NCBI GenBank assembly: GCA_000165345.1
Contig: CM000430.1
Coordinates: forward strand, 896,001 to 960,000
Length of the DNA stretch: 64,000 nt
Direction: 5' to 3'
The position numbers and the translations under genes were made by a program. Of this stretch, positions 1-47,851 are shown piece after piece. The notes under the pieces were generated by a model, which saw only the letters and a list, made by a program, of their open reading frames with translations, searched no databases and was not told where the DNA came from. Position 1 is the stretch's first letter, and each line of letters begins with the position of its first letter.

Positions 1-85
1 GTTTCTGTTTTTTTGTGCCTATATTGTATTTACATGCGCATGCAATTTCATTGTTTGCTTGTTTTTAAAATTAAATTACGTGTTC

Positions 86-5683: not shown

Positions 5684-8086
5684 ATGTCAGCAGATAAAGA
5701 ATTATTTACCCTTGAGGGGTTTCAAAAAATGAAGTTAGCAACACAGAATAGAATAAATAAAGCAATAAATTCTTCGACTAACATTTTGGAATCTGTTAAA
5801 AGCTCATTTCATAAAGCTCCGAAGTCATATAAATTATTAGAATTAGTACCAGGTGCAATTGAAGCTCCAAAACGTGAAAGAGTCACAACAGAAGATTTAA
5901 CTATCGTAATTAGTGAAAAGTATTCATCTAGAGTAAATTCTAAACAGAATAACAAAAAGAAAGATTTAAAAATTAAGAGAGGAATAAATGGAATGATTAA
6001 GGATTGGAATATTATAGAAGGAAATGCAAATACTGAAATAAATAATGGAGATTCTGGATTTAAAGATTTTGTAACAGAAGCAAAAGCTGCAGAATTTGTG
6101 ATAAAATTTTTAGATAGAATGCAATCCAAAAAATATGCAATGAATTATGATAATGTTTCAATGCATGTAAAAGGTGAAACTCAATTAGACAGACAGTTAT
6201 CAGCATATCCACTATTTGTTTCTACAATTTCTCATGCTTCAATGGGTTTGTCAAATACCAGAAGAGATGGATCATTATATGATATTGTAGGTGGAGTTGA
6301 TCCAGGCTTGGGAACATTGATTGGTAATTTTAAAAATAATAAACAAATCTTTGATAGAAGCCCTCTTGTTCAATTATCTCAAGAATTAGAAAGAGATACT
6401 TTATTAGAAAAAGCACCATCTTGGTCATCAAAGTTATTACCAAGTATTGGAACAAAATTAGATTACCAAACTTTTGATGAAGAAAAAGCTCTTGGAGTAT
6501 ACAGTAAAGATAAAATTAATAAAGAATCTATAATGTTTAGACAATTTAGACAAAATCCATCAGCTGGAAGAATGGGTAAAAGATTTACAAGTTTAGAAGG
6601 TTCAAATACATTAATATTACAAAAAGATGATGTTTCCAATTTTGATGATACTCCAAATAATTCAAAAAACAAGAAATCTCAAGGGAATTTAAATTCATCA
6701 CTTCAAATTTTGACAGATTTGAATAAAATACCAACAAGATTTCCGTGGATATTAGAAGAATTACCTATAGCTCAATCTTTTAAGAATCAGTTTCTATTAT
6801 TTAATGAAAATTCATCTTTAAATAAAAGTGAATCAAAGGAGGAAAATGTTAAGAAAACATTTTATCAAAAAGCTAAGGGATTATCTAATTCTACTTTAAG
6901 GCAAGAAAATATAGTTAAAGCGATTGTTAGTAATAGAGGAATTGCAATGGTAAGAAATATTACAAATGTACCAGCAGATTCTAATCTGGAAGCATATTTT
7001 GATGAATTGGATGATAATAGTGATAATGATGAACGTTATTTATGGGAAGATGATCGAGAGAGAAAAAATCAACAAACAAAAGAAATTGGAGTACAAAAAT
7101 ATATGGAAGAAACATCTTTTGATACGGATTTTCAAAATAACGAACCAGATTTGGAATCATTAATGAAAGATTTGGAGATTCATTATAATCAAATAAAAAG
7201 TGAAAGGAATGAAAATAATTCACCAAAACAAGGAAATAACTGTCAATCTCCTCAAAATTTCCAATTCTCTTCTTCATTAGAAAATGATTCAAAAGATTTT
7301 AAAGATTTACATCATCCAGAAAATATACAAAAATCAAGTGGATCTGTAAATAATATTAAAGATAATGAATTAAATATAATGTTATTACAAGGTATGAATC
7401 CTTATTCAGGTCCAGAAATCAAGATTGAATATGATTTAAGCGAATTATATAATTCTGAGAGAAATTTATATAGAGGAGAAGGAATTGAAAAGACATGGAA
7501 AAGTTATTATGATTCATTAAAGAATTACCAAGATGCTGTTAATCAAAAGAAAGAATATATGGAAATGATTCATTATAACATGAGTCCATCAAGAAAGATT
7601 TTAAATGGATCTCAATCTAGAAAATCAAAAATTCCTAAATCATTTTTACCAATACATGAAAGTTTACAACAAGAAGATGATCCTCAAGAAGAATATTATA
7701 GTTTTGTTCAAGGACAGAGGATGATTAAAGAAAGTATTAATCAATTTCCAATACAAAGTCACACATCAGCTTATAAGACTGTTGGTGAGGACAATATTCA
7801 TCTTGTTGGTCCAAAATCTAGAGGTTATATTAGGGGATTAGCAGCCGTACGTGGAGGAAGAAGAATAAAACAAAGATTAATAGGTGATAGGAGTAATTAT
7901 GAAAATCAATTAAGATCAAGAAAAGAAGATCTTGGTTTTCTTAAATATACAGAAAAAGACCGTGAAGAATTTTTGGAACATGTTAGATATAATAATAAAA
8001 AGATTCAAGAAATGTATGAAATGGAAGATAAGTTTAATACAAAAGTAAGAATAGCATCCAGAGGTAGATTTAAGAAAATAAGATGA
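5684..8086 (+). CDS. Hypothetical low-complexity protein (Asn/Lys/Ser-rich), no recognisable domain
   Basis: 800-aa uninterrupted ORF with a genuine ATG. Composition typical of lineage-specific apicomplexan proteins. No TM segment and no catalytic motif seen. Confidence 0.55.
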   Translation: MSADKELFTLEGFQKMKLATQNRINKAINSSTNILESVKSSFHKAPKSYKLLELVPGAIEAPKRERVTTEDLTIVISEKYSSRVNSKQNNKKKDLKIKRGINGMIKDWNIIEGNANTEINNGDSGFKDFVTEAKAAEFVIKFLDRMQSKKYAMNYDNVSMHVKGETQLDRQLSAYPLFVSTISHASMGLSNTRRDGSLYDIVGGVDPGLGTLIGNFKNNKQIFDRSPLVQLSQELERDTLLEKAPSWSSKLLPSIGTKLDYQTFDEEKALGVYSKDKINKESIMFRQFRQNPSAGRMGKRFTSLEGSNTLILQKDDVSNFDDTPNNSKNKKSQGNLNSSLQILTDLNKIPTRFPWILEELPIAQSFKNQFLLFNENSSLNKSESKEENVKKTFYQKAKGLSNSTLRQENIVKAIVSNRGIAMVRNITNVPADSNLEAYFDELDDNSDNDERYLWEDDRERKNQQTKEIGVQKYMEETSFDTDFQNNEPDLESLMKDLEIHYNQIKSERNENNSPKQGNNCQSPQNFQFSSSLENDSKDFKDLHHPENIQKSSGSVNNIKDNELNIMLLQGMNPYSGPEIKIEYDLSELYNSERNLYRGEGIEKTWKSYYDSLKNYQDAVNQKKEYMEMIHYNMSPSRKILNGSQSRKSKIPKSFLPIHESLQQEDDPQEEYYSFVQGQRMIKESINQFPIQSHTSAYKTVGEDNIHLVGPKSRGYIRGLAAVRGGRRIKQRLIGDRSNYENQLRSRKEDLGFLKYTEKDREEFLEHVRYNNKKIQEMYEMEDKFNTKVRIASRGRFKKIR

Positions 8087-8102
8087 AGATCAATATCTTA
8101 TA

Positions 8103-11100
8103 TTATTTTAAAAAGATTCTAAGTAATAATTGTGTGGGATCAAGATCTAAAAAATTGGATTCTTGTGTATTAATTATATGATTTGGAATTAAATTTGAAT
8201 CCAAATTATTATTAATTATAATATTGGAATCTAAATTCATATTTTTTCTAATATGAGAGTTACCACCATAAGAAGATGAAGATGATGATGATGATATTGA
8301 GCTTCTCTTCCTTCTTTTATTGGATCTTTTTACTTTATCAAGATCATCTTCTTTTAAAAAATTATTTAATGATGATGTTTTTGAATTATTATTTTGAAAA
8401 ATAAATCTCTTATATTGAATATAATCATAAAGTATATCTTCAAAAGTATCTTGAATTAAACAATATTTAACTTTAACAAATGAAGAAGATGTAATATTAT
8501 TGGATCTTATTCTATATGCTCTGGAAATTGTCTGATTTTCAATTGATTCATCTGAAATTGGATCTAAAATATATATATTAGAAACACAAGATAAATCAAG
8601 ACCATGAGATCCAATATCAATACTTAATAACAAAACAGGAAATTTATTATTAATTTCTTGAATATTATTACTATCATCTTTCTTAAAATTTGAAATGGAT
8701 CTTTGTAATTCTGATTTAGGTATATGTGGATAATATCTACAAGTTCCTATATTAAATAATATAGTTAAAGTATAATATAAAAAATCTAATTGTTGCCATA
8801 AACTTGAAACAATCATTATTTTAATCTTTGGATTCTCTTCAATATCTTTTAAAATACAATGAAGAATATATCTTAATTTTGAACTTGATAAAGAAATTAA
8901 TCCTATTGAAATTAATGGAATATTTTGATAAATATCAATAAAAGGTAATAATGAATTTCCAAAAGAATGAATATAATTATAGAGGTAATTATTAATATTA
9001 TTAACAGTAATATCTGTAAATTTCTGATATAATTCCAATATATTTTTTTCAATTTCATTGGATTTATAATTTTTTGTTAATAAAATTTTTAATTGAGTTA
9101 TTAATGGGAAATTAAATAATGGAATAATATTATTATATTCTTTATAGTTTGATATTAAACAAGAATTTGGAATTGAACTTGAACTTGAACTTGAGCTTGA
9201 ACTTGAACCTGAATTTGAAATAGAATTATCATTCTTTAATTCAATATGAGAAATTTGAATTGGTACTTGAAGTCTATCAAAAAAATCAGAATTTATTTGT
9301 ATATTTTCTCCACAAACAATACAGAATTTTATAGGTCCTCTTTTAGTCCAATATAATTTCTTTTTTGAATTATTACAATTTTTTGAAATATTAAGATTAA
9401 CATGTATTGGAATATATCCATGTTTTTCCATTATACAATATGTACAAACCAAATGTAATTTAGGGCATGGAATAATTAAAGGAAATAAAAGTATTTCATT
9501 ACACGAATCACAATTATAATAATTAAAAGAATTTGAAGATTGTGGTGATGATAATTTTATATTAGTAAAGTAATCCAATACAAATTCCATTCTTAAAGTT
9601 GATTCTATTTGATAAAAATGATCATTTTCATAATTTGGATGTTTATTTTCAAACATCAATCTTAATTCTTGTATATCTTTCATTGATACTGAAATATATG
9701 GAATTGATAAATTCATATTTTTTATTAATTGTAATTTATTATCATCCAAAATAAAATCTTTAATATTCATAGTAAATCCAAGTATTGAAGCAAATCTAAA
9801 ATTCCAAATAACTTCTTGACGATAATTAAGATTACAAGGATGTAATAAAGAATCAATATTATCTTGGCTGAAATATGTACAAAATAAATTTCTTTGAGTT
9901 AATTCACATATTATATTATATATATAAAATTCATTATCAATAAAAGGCTGAATAACTTTTTTAATAGGTCCAATTAAATTAGGAAGATAATTACGTAAAC
10001 ATTGATTTTTTTGATTTAATACAATAATTGAAGCAATTTGAGTAAATATTGTAAAAATTCCAATAGGAGAAAGTTTCCCATTAATGGATGATTTACTAAT
10101 AAGTTTTAAAATTGAATAATTATTTGAATTATTACAATAATTAATTTGGGATGATTCTTGTATTGATTTTAAATTTGTATTATTATCATCATTGTTATAA
10201 GATCTTCTGGAATTTCTTATAGATTCTTGTTCATAATTACGTGTTTTATCACAAATTATGGGTAATTGTAAGAATTTGAGAATATTTGGAATATTTGTGT
10301 TAATTGATTTTATTATAGAAATTGGTAAAGGTGTGCCAGACATAATCCATTTAAATTCAGATTTTATTTTGAATATGAATTGTTGATAAAGAGTTGAGGA
10401 TATTTCAGAATTTCCGATATTATGTCCTTCATCAATAATTAGTCTAAGCCATTTAATTCTTAGAATTGGGCTCATTTCTTGTCTAAAAAATGGATCTTTC
10501 AAATCTTGTTTAATATCTTTATTGTTTTGATTTTTTCCTTTAGTATTTGTAAGAAAAGCTCTCTTATATTTTTGTTTAACTTTACATAGCTGAAATTGTT
10601 TAGTAAGCATTCTATAAGATAATATTACAGCTTTAGCTTGAGCCAAAATATATGGTTCAATTATTTCATCCTTGGATGGATCATCAAATAAATAGATTAG
10701 AATATCATGGTTAGAATCATGACTTTTATAATTATGTGGGTATATTCTTTTATTGGTTGATATAGATTTTTTAGAATGATTATTACTATTATAAGTAACA
10801 ATAACATCAGTTTTGTACCACTTTTTAATTTCTTCAATCCAATGTTGAATAAGATGATTTGGTACAATAATTAAAGTAGCTCCAGTTGGAATAAGATCGG
10901 AATTTTTGTTTATAACATTATTTTGATATAAATATTGTGAATTACTTTCATCTTGTGTAGAGATATTAACTAGTTTAATAGGAGAAGTTTTATGACTAAT
11001 CATAAAGTTAATTCCCAATTCTGGTTGGTTAATTTTATAAAGCAAATCTTTGACTCCAAATGGATATTCAAAATAAGAAGTTCCATCATCTTTATGTATA

Positions 11101-12533
11101 TTAGAAACTTTATTGGAAGTCTTACTTATAAGTGATAATACTGTAAGAGTTTTTCCAAGTCCTGGTTCATCACAGAAGATTCCTCCTTTTGTTTGAGAAT
11201 ATTCTTGTTCTCTAAATTCATTTCGTGATTTTGGACAAAATCCTAAATGGATTATTTTATTTGTATGGTTTATATATAAAGCAATACTAGATTTTCTTTG
11301 AAAAACTTGATAAGAAATATTAGAGGCCAGAAATTTGGGGTGAATTTTAATACCCATTAGATAATTTTGATTATTATCCCATATAATCTTTTCCAAATGT
11401 TGAGAATTGACTATTTGAGAAACATCACTTATTCTTAAATAGTGCCATATTGATAGATACTTAAATATATCTTCAGAAGAAGTTAAATATCTAATTGGAT
11501 TTTCAAATAACCAATGACCTTCTCCAGAATGTGATTCACGTTCTAATAGCCAAGTTACTGATCTTCTTTGATGAGGAAGTAAGTTATTTCTGTGGTATAT
11601 TAGCCAAATATATTTGAATGATTTGTTTAATATAGAAACCTGAGAGAGAGAATTATTATCTAGAAAATCAAAAATCTTCCACCAAATTTCGATTGGAATT
11701 TTAATATTCAAATATTGATGGATATATCCTTCACTTCTTAAAACTGATGCAATAACATCAGTTTTTTCATTTTCATGTTGATTTTCGTCAAAATTACTTA
11801 TGGAAAGTAATTCTTTACTCAAATAATTCATGACATTTCTGATAGATAACCCATTTATCAATTCTGAAGTAAATTCTAAATGTTCAACACAATTAAGTAC
11901 TTTGCATGTTGAATAGCAAAAACTCTCTATTACTTTATTCTCAATTGGAGCTTCTTCAATTCTTGATTGATTCTGAGAATCCAAAGATATTGATGAAGTT
12001 AGATCTGAAAATAAGTCTCCTTGAATCACTAATTTTTTGAATAAATCCAAAAGTAATTTTCTTTTTTCATCAAATTCTAAAGAAAATGTACTTTTTAAAT
12101 GGGATATAACTTCGCAAGTTATTCCACTATTACTTAAAGTAAAAATCCCTCTTTTACAATTATAACTTGTAATAAAATTTACTCCAAAATTATACCATAC
12201 ATATATCTTTACTCTCTTTACTTTATTTATCTCTTTTTCTTCTTCAAATTCTATTTGTGGAAACAAATTTTTCAGCTCTTGAGTGAATTCACTTTCAGCT
12301 TCAACAAAAGAGTCGAATTTAATTCCATCACAAATTCTTAATAAGTTTGACCAAATACTTTCTTTAAAAGAATATAATTCACTTTCAGAATCATTTTCTT
12401 TTCCAGCTTTATATAATAAATCATTTAAATCACTAATCCAAAATGAATATCCAATTTTATTCAACAAAAGCTCATTGCATTTTGAACCTAATCCTCCAAG
12501 CAAAACCCACCTATCTTTTGAATCAACATTCAT
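8103..12533 (-). CDS. SNF2-family DNA-dependent ATPase with RING finger, Rad5/Rad16/HLTF-like, with an N-terminal F-box-like motif
   Basis: 1476 aa with a genuine ATG. SNF2 motif I (DEPGLGKTLTVLSL) and motif II (LIIDEGHNIG). C3HC4-like RING inserted between the ATPase lobes (CDSCNEILLFPLIIPCPKLHLVCTYCI). Helicase-C motifs (LLLSIDIGSHGLDLSCVSNIYILDP...QTISRAYRI). F-box-like segment (IPIEIWWKIFDFLDNNSLSQVSILNKSFKYIW). Internal poly-Ser tracts. Confidence 0.85.
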   Translation of the reverse strand: MNVDSKDRWVLLGGLGSKCNELLLNKIGYSFWISDLNDLLYKAGKENDSESELYSFKESIWSNLLRICDGIKFDSFVEAESEFTQELKNLFPQIEFEEEKEINKVKRVKIYVWYNFGVNFITSYNCKRGIFTLSNSGITCEVISHLKSTFSLEFDEKRKLLLDLFKKLVIQGDLFSDLTSSISLDSQNQSRIEEAPIENKVIESFCYSTCKVLNCVEHLEFTSELINGLSIRNVMNYLSKELLSISNFDENQHENEKTDVIASVLRSEGYIHQYLNIKIPIEIWWKIFDFLDNNSLSQVSILNKSFKYIWLIYHRNNLLPHQRRSVTWLLERESHSGEGHWLFENPIRYLTSSEDIFKYLSIWHYLRISDVSQIVNSQHLEKIIWDNNQNYLMGIKIHPKFLASNISYQVFQRKSSIALYINHTNKIIHLGFCPKSRNEFREQEYSQTKGGIFCDEPGLGKTLTVLSLISKTSNKVSNIHKDDGTSYFEYPFGVKDLLYKINQPELGINFMISHKTSPIKLVNISTQDESNSQYLYQNNVINKNSDLIPTGATLIIVPNHLIQHWIEEIKKWYKTDVIVTYNSNNHSKKSISTNKRIYPHNYKSHDSNHDILIYLFDDPSKDEIIEPYILAQAKAVILSYRMLTKQFQLCKVKQKYKRAFLTNTKGKNQNNKDIKQDLKDPFFRQEMSPILRIKWLRLIIDEGHNIGNSEISSTLYQQFIFKIKSEFKWIMSGTPLPISIIKSINTNIPNILKFLQLPIICDKTRNYEQESIRNSRRSYNNDDNNTNLKSIQESSQINYCNNSNNYSILKLISKSSINGKLSPIGIFTIFTQIASIIVLNQKNQCLRNYLPNLIGPIKKVIQPFIDNEFYIYNIICELTQRNLFCTYFSQDNIDSLLHPCNLNYRQEVIWNFRFASILGFTMNIKDFILDDNKLQLIKNMNLSIPYISVSMKDIQELRLMFENKHPNYENDHFYQIESTLRMEFVLDYFTNIKLSSPQSSNSFNYYNCDSCNEILLFPLIIPCPKLHLVCTYCIMEKHGYIPIHVNLNISKNCNNSKKKLYWTKRGPIKFCIVCGENIQINSDFFDRLQVPIQISHIELKNDNSISNSGSSSSSSSSSSSIPNSCLISNYKEYNNIIPLFNFPLITQLKILLTKNYKSNEIEKNILELYQKFTDITVNNINNYLYNYIHSFGNSLLPFIDIYQNIPLISIGLISLSSSKLRYILHCILKDIEENPKIKIMIVSSLWQQLDFLYYTLTILFNIGTCRYYPHIPKSELQRSISNFKKDDSNNIQEINNKFPVLLLSIDIGSHGLDLSCVSNIYILDPISDESIENQTISRAYRIRSNNITSSSFVKVKYCLIQDTFEDILYDYIQYKRFIFQNNNSKTSSLNNFLKEDDLDKVKRSNKRRKRSSISSSSSSSSYGGNSHIRKNMNLDSNIIINNNLDSNLIPNHIINTQESNFLDLDPTQLLLRIFLK
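9174..9219. repeat. Hexanucleotide (TGAACT)n-type tandem repeat encoding a poly-Ser tract in the SNF2 gene
   Basis: tgaacttgaacttgaacttgagcttgaacttgaacctgaatttgaa. On the minus strand it encodes SGSSSSSSSSSSS. Confidence 0.7.
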
Positions 12534-13397
12534 TTCTCATGTTAACTGCTTCTATTTGTTTAAATCTGCTTAAATAATAACTTTAAGTCTTTTAATCTGT
12601 GAATTCTAGATACCTGTAATTCACGACCAATACATTGAATTTCATCAAAAACAAAATTATGAAAATAAACTTTAAAAAAACCCGTGTTTCTTTCTCTATA
12701 AATATCTTTGCCTTTTACTATACTGCCTTTCTGAATTATAATAACAATAAGTAATAATTCCAGAATTCTTTTGACTCAATTTGAAATATTAACCTTTAAA
12801 TGTTTTGGCGCCATGTCATTTTGACATTAACATTTGTAAGAATTACTATAAATATTGTTAGTATTATTATTGTTACAATTAATTCATTATTCCAACTTTT
12901 AATTCGTGAATTCAAATAAATTTCTTTAATTTAGTTGATTGAATGTCTTTTTAACTTTGTTATATTATTTTCAAAATGTTCTTAAACTTTTCCTTAACAT
13001 GTAACAATTTTGTTATAACTTTAAAATTAATTTAATAATTTAATTAAATGAAATTAACTCATTAATGTATTTTTATTTGTAATTGAAATTATAAATGAAG
13101 AATAGTATTGCTTGCAAAAATTGATTATTTATTGCTTCACGAACTTTCAACATAAAATTCAAGATTATTCACTATGTCAAATCAATAAAAAGTAGAAAAA
13201 GCTTCTCTCTTGAATTTTGTTCATATCTCCATTTATTAAATAATAATAACAATAATATTAATAGGAATCATATATAACTATTGAATACAATTTTTAAAAA
13301 AATTATATATATAATAAACCAAAATTATAATACTAAAACTAATAGAATATTTATGTACACAAAATTTGCATGCAACCCTATCTCTCTAATGTAACAT

Positions 13398-13470
13398 TGC
13401 ATGCAAATTTCGATTTTTTGTTAATAATGACACGTAATCAATTATAATGACCTCCCCACACTTGGCGCCC
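13398..13470. promoter_or_regulatory. Composite module: TGCATGCA (13398-13405; a second copy at 13367-13374), AATGACACGTAA (13426-13437), TTGGCGCC (13463-13470)
   Basis: Same element order as 5284-5335 and an identical 12-mer AATGACACGTAA. Sits in the spacer between the SNF2 gene start (12533) and the lipase gene stop (13604). Confidence 0.4.
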
Positions 13471-13603
13471 AATGAATTATTCGGGTAATTTTAATATTGC
13501 AATAATTATTATCAAAATCTTATAATAGTGATCACTATTATAAGATTTTGATGAAAAATGATTGTATTTTTGTAAAAAGAAAGTATAAGTATTCACTCAA
13601 AAA

Positions 13604-16069
13604 TTATTTTCTCCTGGATCCATACTTGATATTACGAATAGTATCCTTGATAGCTTTTTCTAGAAAATTCATATGCTTAATTCTCATAACATGTGGCCAT
13701 GTTCTCCTTTCACCTTCAGTTATAAAGTGAAGCATATCATCATATGACGGATGATTAATACACCTATACCAATCAAAAAGGGATACTCTTGGAGTAATAG
13801 TAACATGACCTTCAATTTCTTGTAACATCCAAAAATTGCTAACATCTTTTCCAAATAACTTTGGAATTAATTTCAGTTTTGCTAATTTAGTATACCTATA
13901 TTTAATATCTAAAGTTAACCAATTTAAAACATTATGTAAAAATGTTCGCTCTGGGTGAATTATGCTTGTATTTATTGGATTTACTGAAACAAAAGGTACA
14001 TGATGTGGGTTTACTTGTGATACAATAAATTGTCGTACATTAAATAATGTTGATAACTCTTTATGTGGTATATCTTGAGAAATTGATCCATCCATCCATT
14101 TCATTCCTGGTGGAAAATATCGGATTATTTTATTGGTATGATTTTCTTTTGCAAATAATTCTGCTACTGGCATTAATCCTGGTAATGCACAAGAAGCTGA
14201 AACTGCACTCCAAAGTAAAATATCTGGAGTAGTAATACAATTTAAAACTAATGGTTCAGTAAATTCTGGAGTTACATAAGTTGGACTCACTGTTATTGTT
14301 ACTATTCTTCCTGTTAATTTATATGCTTCATAGAATGTATAATTCTTAAAGTAAGTCTGACAAGTCTTAATAAATTCTTTTGGATCTATCATATAACCTT
14401 TTACTAGGAAATGACGGATCTGATCTAATAATGGAGGAAACCAACGATGACCATGCATATTTGAAACTGTTGGTTTAATATATTCGTTTAAAATCTCTTC
14501 ATTACTTTTTGTTGCAAGTATTGCTGCAACAATTGAACCTCCACTTGTGCCATTGATTATTTTTGGCATTATATCTTGTTCTAATAAAACTTTAACAACA
14601 CCCAAATGATACATTGCTAAAGCTCCTCCTCCACTTAAGCATAAAGCAGTTTTGCCTGTTGAATGCCCTAAAAGTTCTAAATAATGAATTAAGCTATTAC
14701 TTGCTAACGAGCCTTCACTTTTTGAAAATGTTAGAACTGATCCAGTACCTGTTTCAAAGCTAAATTGGCTCATATAATTCTTTCTTACTTTATTTTCATA
14801 GTAATAACCCCAATCAGAATTCCATCTATCACTACCATCCTTTGAAATATTAAACCCACTATCGATCGCTTGTAAATCATTATCATACTCCTTACAATGA
14901 CATTCTTTATTAATACCGGAATTTAATTCGTCTTTATTTACTTTATTTTCTTCATTATTTGCCAAACATTTTTCACATGTTTGAATAGAAACATTCTTTG
15001 ACATATTCTCCATTCTAAACTCTGATAAAGAAGAAATTGAAGTATTCATTAAATCTCTATTTTTTAAAGATATTCTACCAGATGAACTTTTATTATTCAT
15101 TCTTCCTGTGCTTGAAAGCTCTTGCTCATTACTAGTCAAGTAAAGATTTTTTGTCTCTTCTTTAATTGAATCACTATTCGAGTTTTCCTTTTCTTCCTCT
15201 AAAAGCCTTTCTATATCATCAAAATCAAAACCTTCATCGCCATCTTCCATACTGAAATTCATTGAATTTTCTTCTATTTCCTTATTGAATAATGAACTAC
15301 TTGAATAAATACTTGATTGTTTTGAGAAGCTTATCAATCTTTCTATTGAATTTGATCTTGAATCCTGATCAGAAGAAAGTTTATATGTATTTCTATCACT
15401 TAAAGCATTCTCAAGTTCTATTGAAAGTTCTGGAGATTTTGAACACATTGTCAAAAACTTTAATACATTCTCAATCTCATCCTCAAATTCATCTATTAGA
15501 ATCTTTGTACCAGAAAACGCTTTGTTATATAATGCTTGTTTTGATATTGACGCAAAATTCCTATCGCAACACCATCTTAATAGAAATACCAATTTCTTCA
15601 AATTATTGTTCTTTCTTGCTTCTTTCAACCTAGTTATATACTCCTTTAAATAAATCCATTGATAATCATCAGTCTCCTCAACTGATCTCCATTCATATCC
15701 ACCACAAATCTCATCCAATTTAGTACCAATATTAAACCATTCATCATAACTATTTGATTGTTCTAATCTGTAATATAGTTCATCTCTTGCTGTATGGAAA
15801 CTTCTAATCCATAAACTTAATCTTAATAATAAACTTGACCATATAAATAGTATAATATTTATTGATATTCTAAATATATGATATAATCCCAGCATTACCC
15901 TCCCAAACGAAAATAGAAATGAGCCCAATAACCATAAGCACCATGTCATCCATATTAATGCATATTGTCTAATTCTTGCATTAATTAAAATCAATAATGC
16001 AAATGTTGTTAAAAAAGTTGTTGAAAATATCAAATGGACCAAAAATATTACCAACCATGTACTAATCAT
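13604..16069 (-). CDS. Patatin-like triacylglycerol lipase, SDP1/TGL4 family
   Basis: The ORF-track start at 16090 is TTG; the first ATG is at 16069, giving 821 aa. N-terminal TM plus DUF3336-like region. Patatin oxyanion motif LCLSGGGALAMYHLGVV and lipase GTSGGS (GxSxG). Long collinear similarity to plant SDP1 and yeast Tgl4 (FYEAYKLTGRIVTITVSP; LWSAVSASCALPGL; WMDGSISQDIP; LFNVRQFIVSQVNPH). Contains a 200-aa Ser/Asn-rich insertion. Confidence 0.85.
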   Translation of the reverse strand: MISTWLVIFLVHLIFSTTFLTTFALLILINARIRQYALIWMTWCLWLLGSFLFSFGRVMLGLYHIFRISINIILFIWSSLLLRLSLWIRSFHTARDELYYRLEQSNSYDEWFNIGTKLDEICGGYEWRSVEETDDYQWIYLKEYITRLKEARKNNNLKKLVFLLRWCCDRNFASISKQALYNKAFSGTKILIDEFEDEIENVLKFLTMCSKSPELSIELENALSDRNTYKLSSDQDSRSNSIERLISFSKQSSIYSSSSLFNKEIEENSMNFSMEDGDEGFDFDDIERLLEEEKENSNSDSIKEETKNLYLTSNEQELSSTGRMNNKSSSGRISLKNRDLMNTSISSLSEFRMENMSKNVSIQTCEKCLANNEENKVNKDELNSGINKECHCKEYDNDLQAIDSGFNISKDGSDRWNSDWGYYYENKVRKNYMSQFSFETGTGSVLTFSKSEGSLASNSLIHYLELLGHSTGKTALCLSGGGALAMYHLGVVKVLLEQDIMPKIINGTSGGSIVAAILATKSNEEILNEYIKPTVSNMHGHRWFPPLLDQIRHFLVKGYMIDPKEFIKTCQTYFKNYTFYEAYKLTGRIVTITVSPTYVTPEFTEPLVLNCITTPDILLWSAVSASCALPGLMPVAELFAKENHTNKIIRYFPPGMKWMDGSISQDIPHKELSTLFNVRQFIVSQVNPHHVPFVSVNPINTSIIHPERTFLHNVLNWLTLDIKYRYTKLAKLKLIPKLFGKDVSNFWMLQEIEGHVTITPRVSLFDWYRCINHPSYDDMLHFITEGERRTWPHVMRIKHMNFLEKAIKDTIRNIKYGSRRK

Positions 16070-16915
16070 TGTCAGATGTATTACATGCAAACAATATTAC
16101 ATGCTTACATGCATGTGGATAAAATTAATATTTATATATAATATATAATAATAATAATATAACCAGCTTCTTCAATTAATTTTCCACACCTTTTATACAA
16201 TACTTGGATCTGAGTTAAGGATTTGAAGTTATTTCACAAAGCTTGTAAAAGTAATAGAAATAATTTAATTATTTTTATTATTTTGTTTTTTTTTTACCAT
16301 TTTACTTAATAAATTTATATATACAATTTAATGTATAGCTCCAAACTCATTAATTTAGTATTTTAGGGAGTACTTGTTTTACCAATTCTTAGATTAGCAA
16401 ATATAGGAAAATATAACTACCCTTAATCAAGTTATTTTGGGGAAAAATAAAAAGAAAAAACTGATTATAATTTTTTTTTTTAAATTTTTAATTTAATTTT
16501 TGTGTCAATTTTTAAATGCAATTTCCCCACATGCCATTTATTTTTCTTCCTCGCTTACGTGAAAAAAAAAATTCATTGCACATGTACCGCGCAAACTACT
16601 AAATAAGCCAAAGAATTAATTAAAATAATTAATACGTGTAATATTATATTTATTTATTTATAATTGGAACAAATTTCAGTCAAATACCTAGTAAATCCAG
16701 ATTTAATTCAATATTTCTATGACCCACAGGTTAATGGAAGCTTGAATCTATTTGGATTTGTTGGAAAGGACATTTTGAGGGAATATTGTATTAAATCTAG
16801 AAATCCACTTGAGGAAATTAGAATTAAAAAATAAAATAAAATAATAATATCAATAATAATAAATCAAGAGAATCAAATTTCCTTGGTCACCAAATTATCA
16901 AATTATTTTTTGTTG

Positions 16916-19144
16916 ATGAACAACTTTAAAGATTTAGGTGCAAATGCATCCAAGGAAGATGTATTATTTTTTCGCTTTATAAAACTTTTTCAATCAATTA
17001 AACAAGTATCAGAAATTCTTATCGAACTTTCCGTAAATTTTATTCTATTCTTAACTTCATTATTGGCCTGGATCTTTCAATTTAATTCGTATTTGATTTT
17101 CTTTTTCAAGAATGCATACAAATTCATATGTAGAATTACTGATTTGGTTACTTTACAACAAAAGATATATATTCTAATAACAATAATCATTTTATATATA
17201 TTAATATATATAATTAACAAGTTATATAGGTCAATAAAAAGGTTGAGAAGGCATTACCACATGAAATGGTCAGTTCTAATAAATCATTTACTTTATATTT
17301 TATCTCCATATTTGATTTTTATCTTTACAATTTACTTGCCTTTATGTATTGTTGTCCCAAAATTTTACTTTGAAGCCATTATAATACGTACTTGGATTCT
17401 TTGGATACCTATAATTAAATCCATTACTTTAGTCTACAATTCTTTATATGGAAATTATTGTCATGAAAATACACCAATTTATAAAGTTATTTCAATACTT
17501 GAGAAATATAATAATACTGACATTATTTTGAATTTATTAGAGACAATTTCCTGTAGAATTGGAAATAAATATAAAATATCACTCCAACCAGGAAAATCTA
17601 ATAGTTCACTAACATTATTAAATTCAAAAAGTACAATGGTAAAGGAAATCGTACAAATTAAGGCAATTCAATGTTGGGTTGACTACTTTAATTTGTGGCT
17701 TATTTACTTTTTTCTAAAGAATTACATCCTTGGAAGTAGTATTAAATATATTTCAAGCATTATAATAAAATATTTTAAAGTAGTAAACATATTAATATTG
17801 GATACTATTAATAACTTTTCAAGTTCAAATTTAAAACTAATCTTTCTTGCAAGTAAATATAAACCTGTATCTTTTATAATACAGCCTATTGGATTTATTC
17901 TCAAATTTCCAACTAATATAATAAAGTACATTCTCTTATTAACAATTAATATGAACTGGAAGTATTTGCTCATTTCAATTGTTGTACTGAATGTATTACT
18001 CCAGATAAAATTCATTCAGGATCATGACAGTTGCTTCTCAATATTATTCAAAGATTCCAGAATAAAAATTGGTATTGGTTCTAGTAGCTGTTTTCAGAAA
18101 ATTGATAATGATGATGAAGATTGTAATAAAGATGATGATATTGATGAAGATAATGAATTGGAAGATGATGATCAAGATGAAAGAATTAATAACCAATCAG
18201 ACGAAAGTAATGACGAAAATTTTAGTAATAAGAATCATTTAGTTAAGGAATTTGAATCTTCTGGTAAGAATCTAATAATTTATGAATACCCATCACTTTC
18301 AATGTTATCAAGAAATTATTTAATAGCAATAATTGACTGGATCTCAAATAATTTGTTTGGAATATCTTTATTCAGCAATTTTAATATTCAAAATGATACT
18401 CCAAATAGCTCCCCGAACTTATTTATAAGCTTAAATCCCAAGAATATCACAAAGTCTCTTCCATCAATTGGTGATGAATTAGAAGAGACCACTACAGTGA
18501 GTGATAAAAAGTTAAGAAGAAGATCTTCTGTTAAGCCAGAGTTATTACATAGTAACACAATGCCACATCTTTCATTGAGTTCTGGTAATAATGTTAATTT
18601 AGAGAAAGAGGGTGAAGGAAAGTCTTCAAGCCAACTTAAAATAATTGCGAATTTATTAGAAAATAACGCAATAATTGGTTGGCTTCCAGAAAGTTGGAGA
18701 GCTTACTGTTTATTCATTGGAGAAAATATGATGAATAAATCAAGTAAATTTAAATATTGGATTTTGGTTGCAATTATTCTGATAGGTCAAGTTCCACAAT
18801 GGATTATTTTGTTATTTCCTTCTTTTATAGTAAACTTGATTGGATGTATGATATTTGGATATATTTATCCATTGATAATGAGTTTAAGAACAAGCAGTAA
18901 TATTGGAATTAGCTATTATTCTCTAAACACCAAAATGGGTGAAAAGTTACAAACATGGATAATTTACTTGATTATCTTCAATGTTTTGAATGAGATATTC
19001 TCCATGAATAGTTTTCATATGTTTGGAATAATTGCTTGGATACCTTTCAAAATTCACATATATTATCTGATTATCCTTCTTCTTCAACTCACTTCTTCTA
19101 TAATTCCAATTCTTACCAAGCAAGTCAAGTTTAAGAAAAAATGA
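16916..19144 (+). CDS. Hypothetical polytopic membrane protein with an internal acidic (Asp/Glu) tract
   Basis: The ORF-track start 16883 is TTG; the first ATG is at 16916, giving 742 aa. At least 8 hydrophobic helices in two blocks separated by a DDEDCNKDDDIDEDNELEDDDQDE acidic loop. No family recognised. Confidence 0.55.
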   Translation: MNNFKDLGANASKEDVLFFRFIKLFQSIKQVSEILIELSVNFILFLTSLLAWIFQFNSYLIFFFKNAYKFICRITDLVTLQQKIYILITIIILYILIYIINKLYRSIKRLRRHYHMKWSVLINHLLYILSPYLIFIFTIYLPLCIVVPKFYFEAIIIRTWILWIPIIKSITLVYNSLYGNYCHENTPIYKVISILEKYNNTDIILNLLETISCRIGNKYKISLQPGKSNSSLTLLNSKSTMVKEIVQIKAIQCWVDYFNLWLIYFFLKNYILGSSIKYISSIIIKYFKVVNILILDTINNFSSSNLKLIFLASKYKPVSFIIQPIGFILKFPTNIIKYILLLTINMNWKYLLISIVVLNVLLQIKFIQDHDSCFSILFKDSRIKIGIGSSSCFQKIDNDDEDCNKDDDIDEDNELEDDDQDERINNQSDESNDENFSNKNHLVKEFESSGKNLIIYEYPSLSMLSRNYLIAIIDWISNNLFGISLFSNFNIQNDTPNSSPNLFISLNPKNITKSLPSIGDELEETTTVSDKKLRRRSSVKPELLHSNTMPHLSLSSGNNVNLEKEGEGKSSSQLKIIANLLENNAIIGWLPESWRAYCLFIGENMMNKSSKFKYWILVAIILIGQVPQWIILLFPSFIVNLIGCMIFGYIYPLIMSLRTSSNIGISYYSLNTKMGEKLQTWIIYLIIFNVLNEIFSMNSFHMFGIIAWIPFKIHIYYLIILLLQLTSSIIPILTKQVKFKKK

Positions 19145-19335
19145 ATAGTTATTTAATCACCAAGTTATTAGTTATCCATTTCTATATCGGTGATTCCTCT
19201 CTTTTGAATACAAAAAGGTAGTCTGTTTAAGTAGGTATATAAATTAGTTAATTAGTTAAGAATTATCGGTGTCTTTTTTTTTAATTATTTATTTAATTAC
19301 ATTATTATATGTAATATAGAGAGATACTATTCAAC

Positions 19336-20324
19336 TTACTTAATTTTTGGGATCTCAGATGAAAGCTCAACTCTTAATTCTCTATATGATATATTTAAAT
19401 CTTTCTCAAAAGAAGGGGATATACTTTTTGAAAGAAAAATTCTCCAATTAATAGAATTGGACCAAATAAGTCCTAAACTTGGCTTTTGTTTGTTTCCAAA
19501 TATATTACTCCCAGGTATATGAAATTCATTAAGTTCTGTTGTAGTTTGGTTAGTTACAATCAGCCAGGAATCTTGGTCTACAGAAATTCTCTTGAATACA
19601 TTTGAAAATTGTATCAGGCTTGTAGATGCTGAACTATTTTCTGAAAAAGAAACTTTTGAACGGTATAAGTTTGTAATCGAGTCAATGAAGATCGCATCAA
19701 TTTTGTGATTCAAACAAATACCAGGTATAACTCTTTGTAGAAAAATATTCAAATCTTCCAAAGTATTAATTTTGTAGACCTTAACATAATTCATCAATTT
19801 ATTATGCAAAATATTGAGAAGATCGTCTTCATTATTATCTAATTTTTCTTTTGAATTTGCTTTTAAATACTCAAATTCTAATTTTGATTTGAGAATTTCA
19901 GACAATCTTCCATTGGAAAATACTCCATTTTCTGTATATAATACACAAACAATCCCAATATCACTATTAAGCTCGCCCATAACTTTGGAAAAATCCAAAT
20001 TCCTTAACAATACTGAGGTTATCAGAGTTAAACACCATTGAGTTTTTCCAGTCCCTGCTTCTCCCTATAGACGGTTAAAATATTGTAAATTAACTAATAG
20101 GTTATTGGGAATAAAAGGCACACTCAGAAATCACTCACCGTTATCTCAAACAATATTCTTTTTGGAATCCCTCCATTAAAAGCTTTATCTACAACATTTG
20201 ATCCCGTTGATAGCCTTGTATCATCCATTAGCATTTGTTCTGAGGTTGAGATGATTTCTTCTGCTCCTCTGGATCTCCACCATGTTAATTCAAAACCACC
20301 CCCCTTCCCTGATTCTTTTTTCAT
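19336..20324 (-). CDS. RecA/Rad51-family paralog (XRCC3/Rad51C/Rad57-like), 2 exons: 20324..20139 and 20064..19336
   Basis: Exon 1 has an ATG at 20324 and runs ...LSTGSNVVDKAFNGGIPKRILFEIT. Exon 2 begins GEAGTGKTQWCLTL, completing the GExGxGKTQ Walker A of Rad51 paralogs. Intron 20138..20065 (74 nt) has a GTGAGT donor and a TATAG acceptor. The frame is preserved (186 + 729 nt), giving 304 aa. Confidence 0.7.
20065..20138 (-). other. Spliceosomal intron (74 nt) of the Rad51-paralog gene
   Basis: Minus-strand sequence GTGAGTGATTTCTGAGTG...TTTAACCGTCTATAG. Splicing fuses ...EIT to GEAGTGKTQ in frame. Without splicing, a stop follows four codons later. Confidence 0.65.
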
Positions 20325-20745: not shown

Positions 20746-21834
20746 TTAATATCCAGTAGCTCTCCAAGTATGAGGATTGGTCTGATAAACTTTTGCTTCT
20801 CCAACCAAATTCTTAAGCTGATTCCTAATATCATCATGTGTGGCATGAACATCTCTTGTTAATAAAGAGTCAAAGATTCCATCAATAGTCATTTCTGGGT
20901 TACCTTCATTTGATGCTTGGTCTAATACAGAGGAAATGATTTCTCTTAACTTTAGAGGGTTACTTTGAACTCCAGCTCCTGAATTGAATTGATTAGACTT
21001 TGGTGCAATAGCTGAAACTACCCTGATTGGTGGTTTATTCATCGAGATATTCTGTTCATTACCAAAGTTGTTATTACCTCCATAATTATTAAAGTTACCT
21101 TCATTTTTGTTATTCGTATTATTGTTGTTATTACTTCCAAATTGTCCGCTTAAGTTAAACATTGAAGATACAATACTTTGATTTGAATCCTTTACAGAAT
21201 CTCCTGCACCTCCGTAATTCATTGATCCTTGTTTGTTAATTATTACGTTAGAGTCAGAAAGTTGTACTTTCCCTGAATCATAAGTATTGCCATACATACT
21301 TCTTACTATATAGCTTGCAACATCAATATCGTGTAATGAAATCTCATCAGTACATACTAATGGGCGCACTACAAAAGCTCTTACTGATGGTTCCGAAACC
21401 ATTAAAGTCAATTCTCCAAATATCTTTACAAAGCATCCTTCGTGTATAGAATTTACCAAATCCTGCTTGTACTTTGTTCCTGTATTATCTACTAGCCAGT
21501 CTATTAGGATTAATCCTGATCCATCATCTAAATAAAAACGTAGTCTTTGTGGATAATCATCATGCTCAACATTTCTAACAAATCCTACTAACTTGAACAA
21601 GTTAATATCTTTGTCAAAAAGTTGAAATCTGCTTAATGTTACAAAATTGCTATATGATCGAAGAATCATACCAACTTTTAATGGTGCTAATTTCTGTTCG
21701 TTTCCTACACTTTGTTTTCTTTCATTTCCATTTTGCATGGAACTATCATTCCCATCAATCATAAACCCACCAGATTCATTCAAATCGTCCATTCCAAATC
21801 CTCCAAAAGGTTTATTATTTCCACCAAAATTCAT
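20746..21834 (-). CDS. RPA2: Replication protein A 32-kDa subunit (RPA2)
   Basis: 362 aa with a genuine ATG. Gly/Asn/Ser-rich N-terminus (MNFGGNNKPFGGFGMDD). Central OB fold with the RPA32 signature (LRFYLDDGSG...CFVKIFGELTLMVSEPSVRAFVVRPLVCTDEISLHDIDV). Low-complexity linker followed by a C-terminal winged-helix-like segment. Confidence 0.7.
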   Translation of the reverse strand: MNFGGNNKPFGGFGMDDLNESGGFMIDGNDSSMQNGNERKQSVGNEQKLAPLKVGMILRSYSNFVTLSRFQLFDKDINLFKLVGFVRNVEHDDYPQRLRFYLDDGSGLILIDWLVDNTGTKYKQDLVNSIHEGCFVKIFGELTLMVSEPSVRAFVVRPLVCTDEISLHDIDVASYIVRSMYGNTYDSGKVQLSDSNVIINKQGSMNYGGAGDSVKDSNQSIVSSMFNLSGQFGSNNNNNTNNKNEGNFNNYGGNNNFGNEQNISMNKPPIRVVSAIAPKSNQFNSGAGVQSNPLKLREIISSVLDQASNEGNPEMTIDGIFDSLLTRDVHATHDDIRNQLKNLVGEAKVYQTNPHTWRATGY

Positions 21835-44644: not shown

Positions 44645-45967
44645 ATGAGATGGAAATGGGTTGTTTCTAGTGTGGCCACACTATTAACATTGATTATCTC
44701 TGTGGTTAACATTATGCACCAGTATTTGAATCTATGTAAGCCTAAATTGCAGTTGTGCATATGTAGAATTTTAACAATGATTCCAGTATATGCAATAATA
44801 TCATATATATCATATTTGTTCGTGGATTATGCTTCACCATTGAATATAGTAAGAGACTGCTATGAAGGATATGTAATGTTCTCATTTTTGCAACTTTTGA
44901 TTTTTTATATGGGAGGTGACCAAGTCATCTTGTCAGTATTAGAGAGTAACAAGATTAAGGCTGAAATATGGCCACATCATCATTTTAACCACTCTCTAAG
45001 TATGGTTGGGCTGGCCTCAACAGCTGGGAGTATTGAATCAAATGAGGAAGAAATTTCAGTAAATATTATGGATATTTGCCCGGATTATTTTTGCGAGAAG
45101 AAGGATAACTTAGATGAAGTTTCTATTGATAGCGGGTTCCAAGGAGATGAACTAGCAAACCATCGTCTAAAGATCGCAAGATTCTACTCTTTTATCAAGT
45201 TAGGAGTCCTTCAATTTGTGATTTTGAAGCCAATTTCAGCGCTTATTTCACTTTTTCTGGAATCTATAGGATTGTATGGATCTGGATCATTTTCATTCAA
45301 GAGAGGATATCTATACATTACAGTTTTAAATAGTATATCAGTTTCTCTTTCAGTATACTCTCTGTTCCTACTATATATCTCAATTTCAGAGCAACTAGCA
45401 CCAATCAGACCAGTACTTAAATTCTTTTGCATTAAACTTATAATTTTTATGAGTTTTTGGCAATCTATCATCCTCTCTGTTCTCAGCCACTTTGGGATTT
45501 ACCCAGATGAGCCAAACTATACCATTAAACTTCATAACTGGCTCCTTACAATAGAAATGACAGTATGCGCAATAATTTATGGTATTGCATTTACAATCAA
45601 GAAAGACTTCAAAAACTACGTTGAAAGCAGACAAGGGTACAGCCAAGACGATTATAACACAGATAACCTTCAAGATTGTGAAAAAACTTGTCACAAGGAT
45701 TTATTTTCTGGAAAAGATAGTGGTCCTATGCGCAATGCTAACTTTCCTCCTCAGGCTTCTACCGACAAACCAAACCTCACCCTTAAAATCTCACATTTGC
45801 CATCCTCTATTTCCAAAAATATTAAACTTTATATATACAGGTTCACCTGCATAGTAAACCCTAAGGATATTATCCAAGATATTATCAGTGCCTTTAGGTT
45901 TCTTAAACAAATTAATAAGTCTCCTAATCCCGAAATAAAACTTGGAAATTCTGGCGCCACATTTTGA
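44645..45967 (+). CDS. TMEM184/OST-alpha (DUF300) family transporter-like membrane protein
   Basis: 440 aa, 7 TM helices. N-terminal signature ...CRILTMIPVYAIISYISYLF...IVRDCYEGYVMFSFLQLLIFYMGGDQ matches the TMEM184 consensus (R.I.MVPIYA..SW.SL....RD.YEAF.IY.F..L...YLGGE). Confidence 0.8.
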   Translation: MRWKWVVSSVATLLTLIISVVNIMHQYLNLCKPKLQLCICRILTMIPVYAIISYISYLFVDYASPLNIVRDCYEGYVMFSFLQLLIFYMGGDQVILSVLESNKIKAEIWPHHHFNHSLSMVGLASTAGSIESNEEEISVNIMDICPDYFCEKKDNLDEVSIDSGFQGDELANHRLKIARFYSFIKLGVLQFVILKPISALISLFLESIGLYGSGSFSFKRGYLYITVLNSISVSLSVYSLFLLYISISEQLAPIRPVLKFFCIKLIIFMSFWQSIILSVLSHFGIYPDEPNYTIKLHNWLLTIEMTVCAIIYGIAFTIKKDFKNYVESRQGYSQDDYNTDNLQDCEKTCHKDLFSGKDSGPMRNANFPPQASTDKPNLTLKISHLPSSISKNIKLYIYRFTCIVNPKDIIQDIISAFRFLKQINKSPNPEIKLGNSGATF

Positions 45968-46528: not shown

Positions 46529-47851
46529 ATGCAGAAAAGAAAGAAGAAATGGAAGCTGGCATTTTGTAACGCTCAAGAATGTGTGAATGCATTGGATTAT
46601 ATGCTTGAAAATAGTTTAGAGACTCTTCTAAATAAGCAAGAAAAACTTAGGGTTGTGGAAGGATTATCAGAAAGAGAAAAGGAGCTGAATATTAAACAAA
46701 ATGAGTTAAACTCAGCTCTAAATGAGGTAGAGGAAGGTTTGAGAAAAACCATCGAATTGACTTTACTTGAGATGAAAGAATTGTCGGAAGAATGCAGACA
46801 CCTTGAAAGAGAATTTACTAAAAAAGCCTCGAATATTCCAAATATCATTGAAAATTTGAATAAGAATGACACCAAATTTGATTCTGAATACCTAGGTAAG
46901 AAAGTTACAGTCGAAGATATACAAAAACTGCAGAATACAAGAAAACAATTACTAGAAGATCTTGAACAATTAAGAAAAGATGAAGAAACTCTCAATAAAG
47001 AGATACAAAACTTGGAGATTAAGTGGAATGCTTATAGAAAAAGAACTCAAAGACTTGAGACTGAAATATCACTTAAAAAAACTGAGACTAATCACCAGGC
47101 TATTCAGGTGGATGCTCATATTAATCGTCGTCTAAGTACTTGTAATAGTATTCGCTCTGATAAAGACAATGATCCAAATATAATGGAAGTAGACGTTATA
47201 CAAGAACAAATGGGAACAAGGAGGAAGAGAAGAGATAGTGTTGTAAAGTGGATTGGAAGACTCTCCATGAATAGTTCGTCTGAAGAGAAAACTAATCAAC
47301 TTTGTGATCATGAATTAGTTACAAATAATGTTAAGGAAGGTACCAAGATTGATAAATCAGATAATAATAACGATATAGAAGATAGAGACGAAGAAGTTCA
47401 AGGCGAGTTACAAGTGCTAAACTTACTAAGTCTAGTCAAGATTGAGCAACCTGAGTCTGACGAAACTTTGACCTCGAAGGCTGGACCTCCCAGCTCTACA
47501 TTAAAACTCAAAGTTGATCCTTCCCCCTTACTTTCCCAATTTTTGGACCCAAATTTTGTATATTGTTCTGATCTACAACCAATAAATGTGGATAAAGAAA
47601 ACTCGAGAAAATCTAATCAAGGACTCTTTTCTAAGGGAGCTTTGGATTTTTCATTAAAGGTCAGAAATCAATGTGATGGGAGTAAAAGCCTTGAAGAAAT
47701 TTCTCTATGTTCCCAAAATCAGGATGCACCAGAAAAATCACTTAATAATGAAGATATTGCGCTCTTTAACATTTTTGTTGGTGAACTTCAAAGAAATGAA
47801 AACATACCTGTATCATCTATTGGAAAGTTACTATGCAGTACACTTAAATAG
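46529..47851 (+). CDS. Hypothetical coiled-coil protein (KEN-box-containing). Minimal single-exon model; candidate 5' exons at 46297..46328 and 46390..46468
   Basis: 440-aa ORF starting at ATG 46529. Upstream, ATG(46297)...TTTACAG|GTAAGT, a 61-nt intron ending ...TTCCAG|, then exon 46390..46468 ending |GTGAGT, then a 66-nt intron ending AAATGCAG| at 46534. This joins in frame (32 + 79 nt = 37 codons) to codon 3 of the ORF, adding MISESFSEIYRTVQECCPVKNSLLDHSDILVNASDIK. Confidence 0.6.
   Translation: MQKRKKKWKLAFCNAQECVNALDYMLENSLETLLNKQEKLRVVEGLSEREKELNIKQNELNSALNEVEEGLRKTIELTLLEMKELSEECRHLEREFTKKASNIPNIIENLNKNDTKFDSEYLGKKVTVEDIQKLQNTRKQLLEDLEQLRKDEETLNKEIQNLEIKWNAYRKRTQRLETEISLKKTETNHQAIQVDAHINRRLSTCNSIRSDKDNDPNIMEVDVIQEQMGTRRKRRDSVVKWIGRLSMNSSSEEKTNQLCDHELVTNNVKEGTKIDKSDNNNDIEDRDEEVQGELQVLNLLSLVKIEQPESDETLTSKAGPPSSTLKLKVDPSPLLSQFLDPNFVYCSDLQPINVDKENSRKSNQGLFSKGALDFSLKVRNQCDGSKSLEEISLCSQNQDAPEKSLNNEDIALFNIFVGELQRNENIPVSSIGKLLCSTLK

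Follow-up and report, generated by a model that had tools for sequence, protein, structure and literature searches.

A three-exon gene model for an XRCC3-like RAD51 paralog in Cryptosporidium parvum

The locus at positions 20324 to 19168 on the minus strand of the window (the whole stretch of 64,000 nucleotides that was analysed) is, with a probability that we put at about 80%, a three-exon gene of Cryptosporidium parvum that encodes a 321-residue RAD51 paralog of the XRCC3/Rad57 lineage. Public databases already contain this gene, with its first intron and in its complete three-exon form, and its family is well characterized. To these records the present analysis adds a corrected 3' end, absent from most models, and places the first intron with respect to Walker A; it also traces where both introns come from and gives moderate support to an assignment to XRCC3, with the N-terminal domain missing. 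The predicted features are as follows.

20324..19168, minus strand: whole coding sequence, three exons, 966 nt spliced, 321 aa
20139..20324, minus strand: exon 1, 186 nt, 62 codons, Met1 to Thr62 (from the sequence and its translation)
20065..20138, minus strand: intron 1, 74 nt, GTGAGT...TATAG, phase 0, between Thr62 and Gly63
19340..20064, minus strand: exon 2, 725 nt, from Gly63 through positions 1 and 2 of the Lys304 codon, RecA/Rad51 ATPase core
20041..20064, minus strand: Walker A (P-loop) GEAGTGKT, residues 63-70, from the first codon of exon 2 onward
19681..19701, minus strand: Walker B IDAIFID, residues 184-190 (from the sequence)
19223..19339, minus strand: intron 2, 117 nt, GTAAGT...AACAG, phase 2
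19168..19222, minus strand: exon 3, 55 nt, completes Lys304 and adds LPFCIQKRGITDIEMDN and the predicted true stop
19170..19168, minus strand: predicted true stop TAA, in exon 3
19338..19336, minus strand: predicted false stop TAA, within the donor of intron 2

The first intron and the Walker A motif

Exon 1 encodes a short N-terminal segment with a conserved WW motif, a segment running from LSTGS to NGGIP, and the strand ILFEIT that precedes the P-loop. As read from the sequence, an in-frame stop lies 5 codons upstream of the start Met. A preliminary description of the window had recognized here a Rad51-paralog gene that ORF calling splits at a 74-nt intron, and this was borne out; the same 66-aa fragment, with one of 214 aa, has been deposited. 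The 66-aa ORF (20324..20124, minus strand) ends in ...GGIPKRILFEIT, runs into GTGAGT and terminates 4 codons further on, after VSDF. The frame of the 224-aa ORF (20010..19336, minus strand) is open upstream through GEAGTGKTQWCLTLITSV and contains no ATG there; both ORFs had been located correctly. Excision of 20138..20065, which is 74 nt long and not a multiple of 3, fuses the two frames into a 304-aa protein.

The join had also been said to restore a diagnostic Rad51 segment, with a profile search proposed as the check, and the Pfam Rad51 profile (PF08423, gathering threshold 22 bits) upholds the claim. The 66-aa ORF gave no match and the 224-aa ORF scored 20.9 bits, under the cut-off, while the joined 304-aa two-exon product scored 48.1 bits over profile positions 7-212 of 244, well beyond what a chance join would give. 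The 321-aa three-exon product scored 50.9 bits over positions 7-243 of 244, which places it in the family. A RecA-type alpha/beta fold is supported by the AlphaFold model (pTM 0.76) and by Foldseek, with probability 1.00 against structures of RAD51, DMC1, XRCC3, RAD51C and RadA. Against the PDB, Foldseek gave all RAD51-family members similar values (E about 1e-16, TM 0.6-0.68), confirming the fold and not separating the paralogs.

The locus was compared in C. parvum, chipmunk genotype I, C. ubiquitum, C. felis, C. bovis, C. andersoni and C. canis. Intron 1 has GT...AG ends in all seven, is 69-95 nt long and falls between the same two codons (EIT^GEAG, where the caret marks the splice junction), in agreement with the earlier view that the intron is real. 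Its sequence diverges faster than that of the exons, and if it were retained a stop would follow within 2-17 codons in each of the seven species.

Contrary to what had been supposed, the Walker A motif is not itself divided by the intron. GEAGTGKT is whole in exon 2, and the phase-0 intron stands directly before its first glycine (EIT^GEAGTGKT); the wider Rad51 signature is what intron 1 splits, between the strand ILFEIT and the P-loop. Residues G63, E64, A65, G66, G68, K69 and T70 do not vary among the orthologues, and Asp190 of Walker B is invariant in all 21 sequences of the orthologue alignment (A3). The protein conforms to both the Walker A pattern GxxxxGK[ST] and the Walker B pattern hhhhD.

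Both introns have the marks of spliceosomal GT-AG introns, namely the ends, the single frame restored by their removal, and a position that is kept while the sequence diverges. Their lengths of 74 and 117 nt are near the mean intron length of C. parvum, 84-99 nt, in a species where about 11% of genes contain introns (PMC4637869). Expression of the gene would involve removal of two short spliceosomal introns, one of 74 nt in phase 0 before the P-loop and one of 117 nt in phase 2, and we infer from the sequence that both are spliced in vivo. Elsewhere in the window, the adjacent 440-aa ORFs at 44645..45967 and 46529..47851 were considered as a tandem duplication; they are unrelated and the idea was rejected.

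The second intron, the third exon and intron ancestry

The 304-aa protein had been put forward as the product of the gene, ending at 19336. It does represent the joined frames, and it is identical to the deposited XP_001388242.1 / EAZ51415.1, annotated as "hypothetical protein [Cryptosporidium parvum Iowa II]"; it is nevertheless incomplete, since exon 3 adds 17 residues to give 321 aa. Coding is predicted to continue past intron 2 to 19168, which puts the proposed end 168 nt short of the true stop. The deposited 321-aa models follow the 304-aa model through ...EIPKIK and then continue with LPFCIQKRGITDIEMDN. In an exhaustive search of GT...AG pairs, a single pair reproduced the deposited 321-aa protein, with exon 2 ending at 19340 and exon 3 at 19222..19168. 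The context of the two-exon "stop", AAA ATT AA^G TAA GT, lies inside a consensus donor. Gene finders, like the preliminary description, stop at the TAA at 19338..19336 because any GTAAGT donor in phase 2 brings a TAA into frame.

The same arrangement is present in all seven Cryptosporidium species compared. In each, a donor A[A/G]^GTA[A/G]GT overlaps the "stop", and a single acceptor lies 60-117 nt farther downstream and leads into (L/I/M)(P/N)F.I...G(I/V).D. Changes in the core of exon 3 relative to C. parvum, counted by eye as synonymous to nonsynonymous, were 5:1 in chipmunk genotype I, 5:1 in C. ubiquitum and 4:1 in C. canis. The introns are richer in AT than the exons and less well conserved. 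In most of the species comparisons no segment is less conserved or richer in AT than intron 2, whose GC content is 19% as against 29-31% in the flanking exons.

When a Cryptosporidium profile was aligned to PDB chains, the exon 3 peptide matched the terminal strand of RAD51C, VPFQITTAGIRD, residue for residue, and distant independent homologues finish in the same F.I...G(I/V) strand. The AlphaFold model folds exon 3 into strands 303-310 and 313-316 with a pLDDT of about 53-60. This model was built from alignment A3, and the modest confidence at its C-terminus is probably due to the lack of exon 3 in most Cryptosporidium rows of that alignment. We assign exon 3, with moderate confidence, to the terminal beta-hairpin of the Rad51 fold.

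The 321-aa product is identical to QOY42821.1 / CPATCC_000500, and the sole difference between that record and XP_001388242.1 is whether intron 2 is spliced. From its locus-tag prefix, CPATCC_000500 is taken to belong to the IOWA-ATCC annotation, and the paper on that re-annotation states that RNA-seq supports 100% of its introns (PMC8744675), which is indirect evidence for splicing here. The window and C. parvum CP029781.1 have the same sequence over the 8,989 bp that surround the gene. The 304-aa protein is 97% identical to a C. hominis cluster representative, and full-length orthologues are found in about ten Cryptosporidium species. Also in this protein cluster are ORF-only fragments of 66 and 214 aa made by automatic calling, a 214-aa model of C. 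hominis TU502, and models of 321 aa for C. parvum (CPATCC_000500) and, in one record, for C. meleagridis. Most annotations have the two-exon model with its end at 19336, among them those of C. parvum Iowa II (RefSeq), C. hominis, C. tyzzeri and C. ubiquitum as well as chipmunk genotype I, C. felis, C. bovis and C. ryanae. The RefSeq model and at least eight other Cryptosporidium records would end at a splice donor and lack the last pair of strands. The 321-aa form is the one to use for expression or modelling; beyond such annotation hygiene the finding has little importance.

Orthologues from two outgroups, Vitrella brassicaformis (9 introns) and Cardiosporidium cionae (12 introns), were mapped onto the gene. 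A phase-0 intron is present in each, at ...EIT^GEAGSGKTQ or ...ELS^GEAGSGKTQ, and so is a phase-2 intron in the codon that directly precedes the terminal hairpin exon (HPE^RCGF and PPT^RQIL). The two Cryptosporidium introns match these exactly in position and phase, and thus appear to be ancestral introns that were retained in common with chromerid and other apicomplexan orthologues, the other 7-10 having been lost in Cryptosporidium. The shared ancestry of intron 2 therefore provides independent support for it. With two of at least nine ancestral introns kept, the gene would be a clean, small case of intron loss in a compacted genome. A pan-eukaryotic age for the two introns was rejected, as neither position is present in amphioxus or Paratrimastix XRCC3 when exon structures are compared. 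Amphioxus XRCC3 shares other intron positions with alveolates.

Two other readings of the gene structure were weighed against the three-exon model. Pieces of exactly the kind produced by ORF-only callers and by the 2004 TU502 annotation would be expected if there were no splicing at all, and the locus were a decayed gene, two small ORFs, or a functional protein started from an internal Met past the intron, as in the 214-aa C. hominis model. Such a 214-aa product would lack Walker A, however, and the separate pieces fall under the Pfam threshold that the joined protein passes. Exon 1 also keeps a nucleotide identity of 60-90% across species, above that of the intron, and the position of intron 1 is kept as far as the chromerids. 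These observations make a reading without splicing extremely improbable. The other reading accepts intron 1 and takes the 304-aa two-exon protein as the real or main product, ending at the TAA at 19338..19336, with "exon 3" as 3' UTR; alternatively, intron 2 may often be retained to give a truncated isoform. The two-exon model is indeed that of RefSeq C. parvum Iowa II and of most other species, the 304-aa protein already passes the Pfam Rad51 threshold, and a retained phase-2 GTAAGT intron necessarily terminates at once, which would be a cheap route to an isoform. On the other hand, an untranslated exon 3 does not fit the conservation of donor, acceptor and the motif (L/I)PF.I...G(I/V).D in all seven species with mostly synonymous changes, nor the presence of intron 2, unchanged in position and phase, in Vitrella and Cardiosporidium. 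Moreover, the Rad51 profile match of the two-exon protein is 32 positions short, with the last beta-hairpin missing, and exon 3 is included in the curated IOWA-ATCC model, in the C. andersoni model and in one C. meleagridis model. We consider the two-exon product quite unlikely, and retain the three-exon gene.

Assignment of the paralog

A profile made solely of the seven corrected, three-exon Cryptosporidium proteins was searched against PDB chains. The best match was Alvinella XRCC3 (8gja_B, 73.1 bits), followed by Alvinella RAD51C (61.9 bits); human XRCC3 (9omy_X) scored 54.3 bits and human RAD51C 41.4 bits. In each of the two species pairs, Alvinella and human, XRCC3 thus leads RAD51C by 11-13 bits. 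Lower in the same ranking were Rad57 at 49 bits, RAD51 at about 48-50 bits (over the Walker A region only), RAD51B at 45 bits and RAD51D at 39 bits. A word-indexed protein search returned few named relatives outside Cryptosporidium. When 1.84 billion representatives were searched exhaustively with HMMER, 13,753 hits were obtained, and among the ten top hits that were looked up all five with a functional name were XRCC3 or XRCC3-like (whitefly, abalone, amphioxus and Paratrimastix); one of the unnamed hits was from the apicomplexan Cardiosporidium. Two sister-species records are already named XRCC3.

A phylogeny had been suggested at the outset as the means to name the paralog. In a simple neighbor-joining tree (BLOSUM62, 26 sequences, 276 columns, with single references for RAD51D and XRCC2), the Cryptosporidium proteins grouped with named XRCC3 sequences, to the exclusion of all other paralogs, in 167 of 200 bootstraps and with RAD51C in none of the 200. 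Cryptosporidium, Vitrella and Cardiosporidium formed a group in 166 of 200. The seven human family references in this work were checked end to end, before use, against PDB chains, with which they scored about 2.1-2.2 bits per residue. Taken together, these comparisons place the protein, with moderate and not decisive support, in the XRCC3/Rad57 orthogroup, closer to XRCC3 than to RAD51, DMC1, RAD51B, RAD51C, RAD51D or XRCC2.

An orthologue of RAD51C, or a lineage-specific paralog outside the five named ones, would also account for part of the data. RAD51C is the second-best match (61.9 versus 73.1 bits), the N-terminal domain of XRCC3 is missing from the protein, and Foldseek ranks the family members alike; protist paralogs are moreover hard to assign (Dobson et al.). 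Nevertheless, RAD51C has the lower score in both species pairs, and none of the 200 bootstraps joined it to the Cryptosporidium clade, as against 167 that did so for XRCC3; the named top hits are XRCC3 throughout. On these grounds the protein is placed outside RAD51C. We regard both of these identities as unlikely, somewhat less so than a two-exon product, and prefer XRCC3.

Two RAD51 paralogues of C. parvum, cgd2_4070 and cgd6_4800, were listed by Dobson et al. (2011), who could assign only one of them, as Rad51C-like or XRCC3-like, and did not state which. The present gene is presumably cgd2_4070, judging from its position near the end of a chromosome record of ~992 kb and from the chromosome-2 locus tag. 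A literature search on Cryptosporidium XRCC3 and cgd2_4070 found no paper dealing with the gene itself.

The N-terminal region and the proposed function

The preliminary description gave the protein the typical size of RAD51C, XRCC3 or Rad57, which is overstated: the product keeps the full RecA-type core and has no N-terminal domain such as those proteins carry. The core is preceded by only about 36 residues (before LSTGS), which comprise a conserved WW motif and one helix; in the AlphaFold model, residues 1-29 have a pLDDT below 50. The helix-hairpin-helix domain that stands before the linker in XRCC3/Rad57 proteins is absent, with no match to PF26169 (HHH_XRCC3_RpoA) at E <= 1 in either the 304-aa or the 321-aa protein, while amphioxus XRCC3 contains it. 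We looked for a hidden upstream exon in the 421-nt intergenic region; all three frames are full of stops and no conserved coding frame was found there. Similarity to close species in this region is independent of frame and none was seen in distant species, and an upstream exon for the N-terminal domain was rejected. The N-terminus of the Vitrella orthologue is likewise short.

The start Met, Trp15, Trp16 and Arg17 are invariant in 10 Cryptosporidium orthologues, and the WW-R motif is also found in Vitrella, in Cardiosporidium and in an unnamed protist sequence. It may be the linker motif. In the CX3 crystal structure, the N-terminal domain of XRCC3 and its linker polymerization motif clamp RAD51C (PMC10366140). 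As the N-terminal domain, half of this clamp, is missing here, the mode of partner binding may differ. In recent cryo-EM work, paralogs without this domain are terminal filament caps (PMC7618403). One could then imagine that the chromerid/apicomplexan XRCC3 lineage of Cryptosporidium, Vitrella, Cardiosporidium and related protists is a distinct form of XRCC3 that dispenses with the N-terminal domain, in which the WW motif, ~22 residues before LSTGS, acts as the linker "polymerization motif", and that with only two RAD51 paralogs in Cryptosporidium it would be part of a minimal, Rad55-Rad57-like cap for RAD51/DMC1 filaments. We offer this as a speculative and rather doubtful proposal.

Judged by its homologues, the protein probably acts as an ATP-binding mediator of RAD51 and not as a recombinase. 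It would pair with another RAD51 paralog and bind the end of a RAD51 or DMC1 filament on single-stranded DNA, where it would promote or stabilize filaments. A role in double-strand-break repair, and in the meiosis of the parasite's sexual cycle, would be expected on the same grounds; that cycle is obligatory. As a minimal XRCC3-like mediator without the N-terminal domain, in an organism for which one other paralog is listed, it could offer a simple system for the core job of RAD51 paralogs.

Among known systems, XRCC3 (known from animals, plants and protists; 8gja_B from Alvinella and 9omy_X from human; the CX3 and XRCC3-RAD51C-RAD51D-XRCC2 complexes) is the best profile match and has in common with the Cryptosporidium protein the RecA-type core, Walker A and B, the terminal F.I..G hairpin and the blocks TE.G.F...RL and KP.LGL.WSN. 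Identity is only about 25%, however, and the Cryptosporidium protein differs in having a 36-residue, WW-containing N-terminus in place of the PF26169 domain and an acidic/helical insertion of 30-40 residues (about residues 113-153). Yeast Rad57 is the proposed orthologue of XRCC3 and the partner of Rad55, which has no N-terminal domain. It is one member of a two-paralog system, an arrangement that C. parvum seems to share, and its 49-bit match to the Cryptosporidium profile covers only the Walker A-proximal third (residues 38-126). Unlike the Cryptosporidium protein, Rad57 is 460 aa long and carries an N-terminal domain. XRCC2, Rad55 and archaeal RadB, on the other hand, are similar to the Cryptosporidium protein in consisting of the core without the N-terminal domain, an architecture that has been tied to filament end-capping (PMC7618403). 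By sequence XRCC2 is not close; the PDB hits at E <= 1e-6 do not include it, and it forms a separate branch of the tree.

Introns of the XRCC3-like gene

Further intron positions in XRCC3 were found to be common to an animal and alveolates and missing in Cryptosporidium, when the loci of Vitrella (L009), Cardiosporidium (L010) and Branchiostoma (amphioxus, L011) were compared. For example, a phase 0 intron at ...NQ|VS occurs in both amphioxus and Cardiosporidium, and another phase 0 intron, ahead of (D/K/R)L..(I/L/V)L...(L/I)P.L, occurs in all three, Vitrella, Cardiosporidium and Branchiostoma. Their presence in both animal and alveolates indicates that these XRCC3 introns are very old.

Intron 2 of the C. 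parvum gene contains a CTAAC-like element, 18-30 nt upstream of the acceptor:

19262..19241, inside intron 2: TTAACTAA(T/C) element, putative branch site

C. parvum, C. ubiquitum and C. canis all conserve the element, C. felis has a variant of it, and chipmunk genotype I and C. andersoni carry looser variants. It is likely the branch site of intron 2.

In C. canis (locus L008, 1678..1768) two deposited models, P0005 and P0004, are mis-spliced. P0005 retains the final 39 nt of intron 1, giving a 13-residue insert, DRESNDLLVWMLQ, that sits exactly at the intron 1 junction, and in P0004 an aberrant C-terminus, GSAVTTGTNDLIN, replaces the conserved LPFCIQKRGISD exon.

N-terminal WW-R motif

A WW-R motif was located near the N-terminus in the 21-sequence alignment of the product with its relatives (A3):

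20280..20273: WW-R motif, codons W15, W16 and R17

The motif is invariant among all Cryptosporidium orthologues and lies ~22 residues ahead of LSTGS, the segment that opens the core. Its counterparts are MDEWW in Vitrella, PFWWRVRE in Cardiosporidium and PSWWQSR in an unnamed protist transcript. The WW-R motif lies at the position of the linker polymerization motif of canonical XRCC3.

Neighbouring genes and other ORFs

The XRCC3-like gene is flanked by two genes:

20746..21834, minus strand: RPA2-type gene, 362 aa, matching human RPA32
ending at 19144, plus strand: convergent neighbour (ORF list and deposited model)

Since its product matches human RPA32 (2pi2_A, E = 1.4e-5, residues 8-208), the upstream gene encodes an RPA2-type single-stranded-DNA-binding subunit; a Pfam search of the 362-aa product gave no match. 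It lies on the same strand as the XRCC3-like gene, 421 nt away, and all six other Cryptosporidium loci compared have a gene of much the same length (337-374 aa) at this upstream position.

With exon 3 counted, the stop of the XRCC3-like gene (19170..19168) is only 23 nt from that of the convergent neighbour, so the two genes must share overlapping 3' UTRs. The neighbour measures 753 aa from a TTG in the ORF list, whereas the deposited model has 627 aa.

Two 440-aa ORFs are also present in the window:

44645..45967, plus strand: Ostalpha-type solute transporter (PF03619)
46529..47851, plus strand: no Pfam match

A tandem duplication was considered for these adjacent, equally long ORFs and rejected, as their sequences are unrelated.
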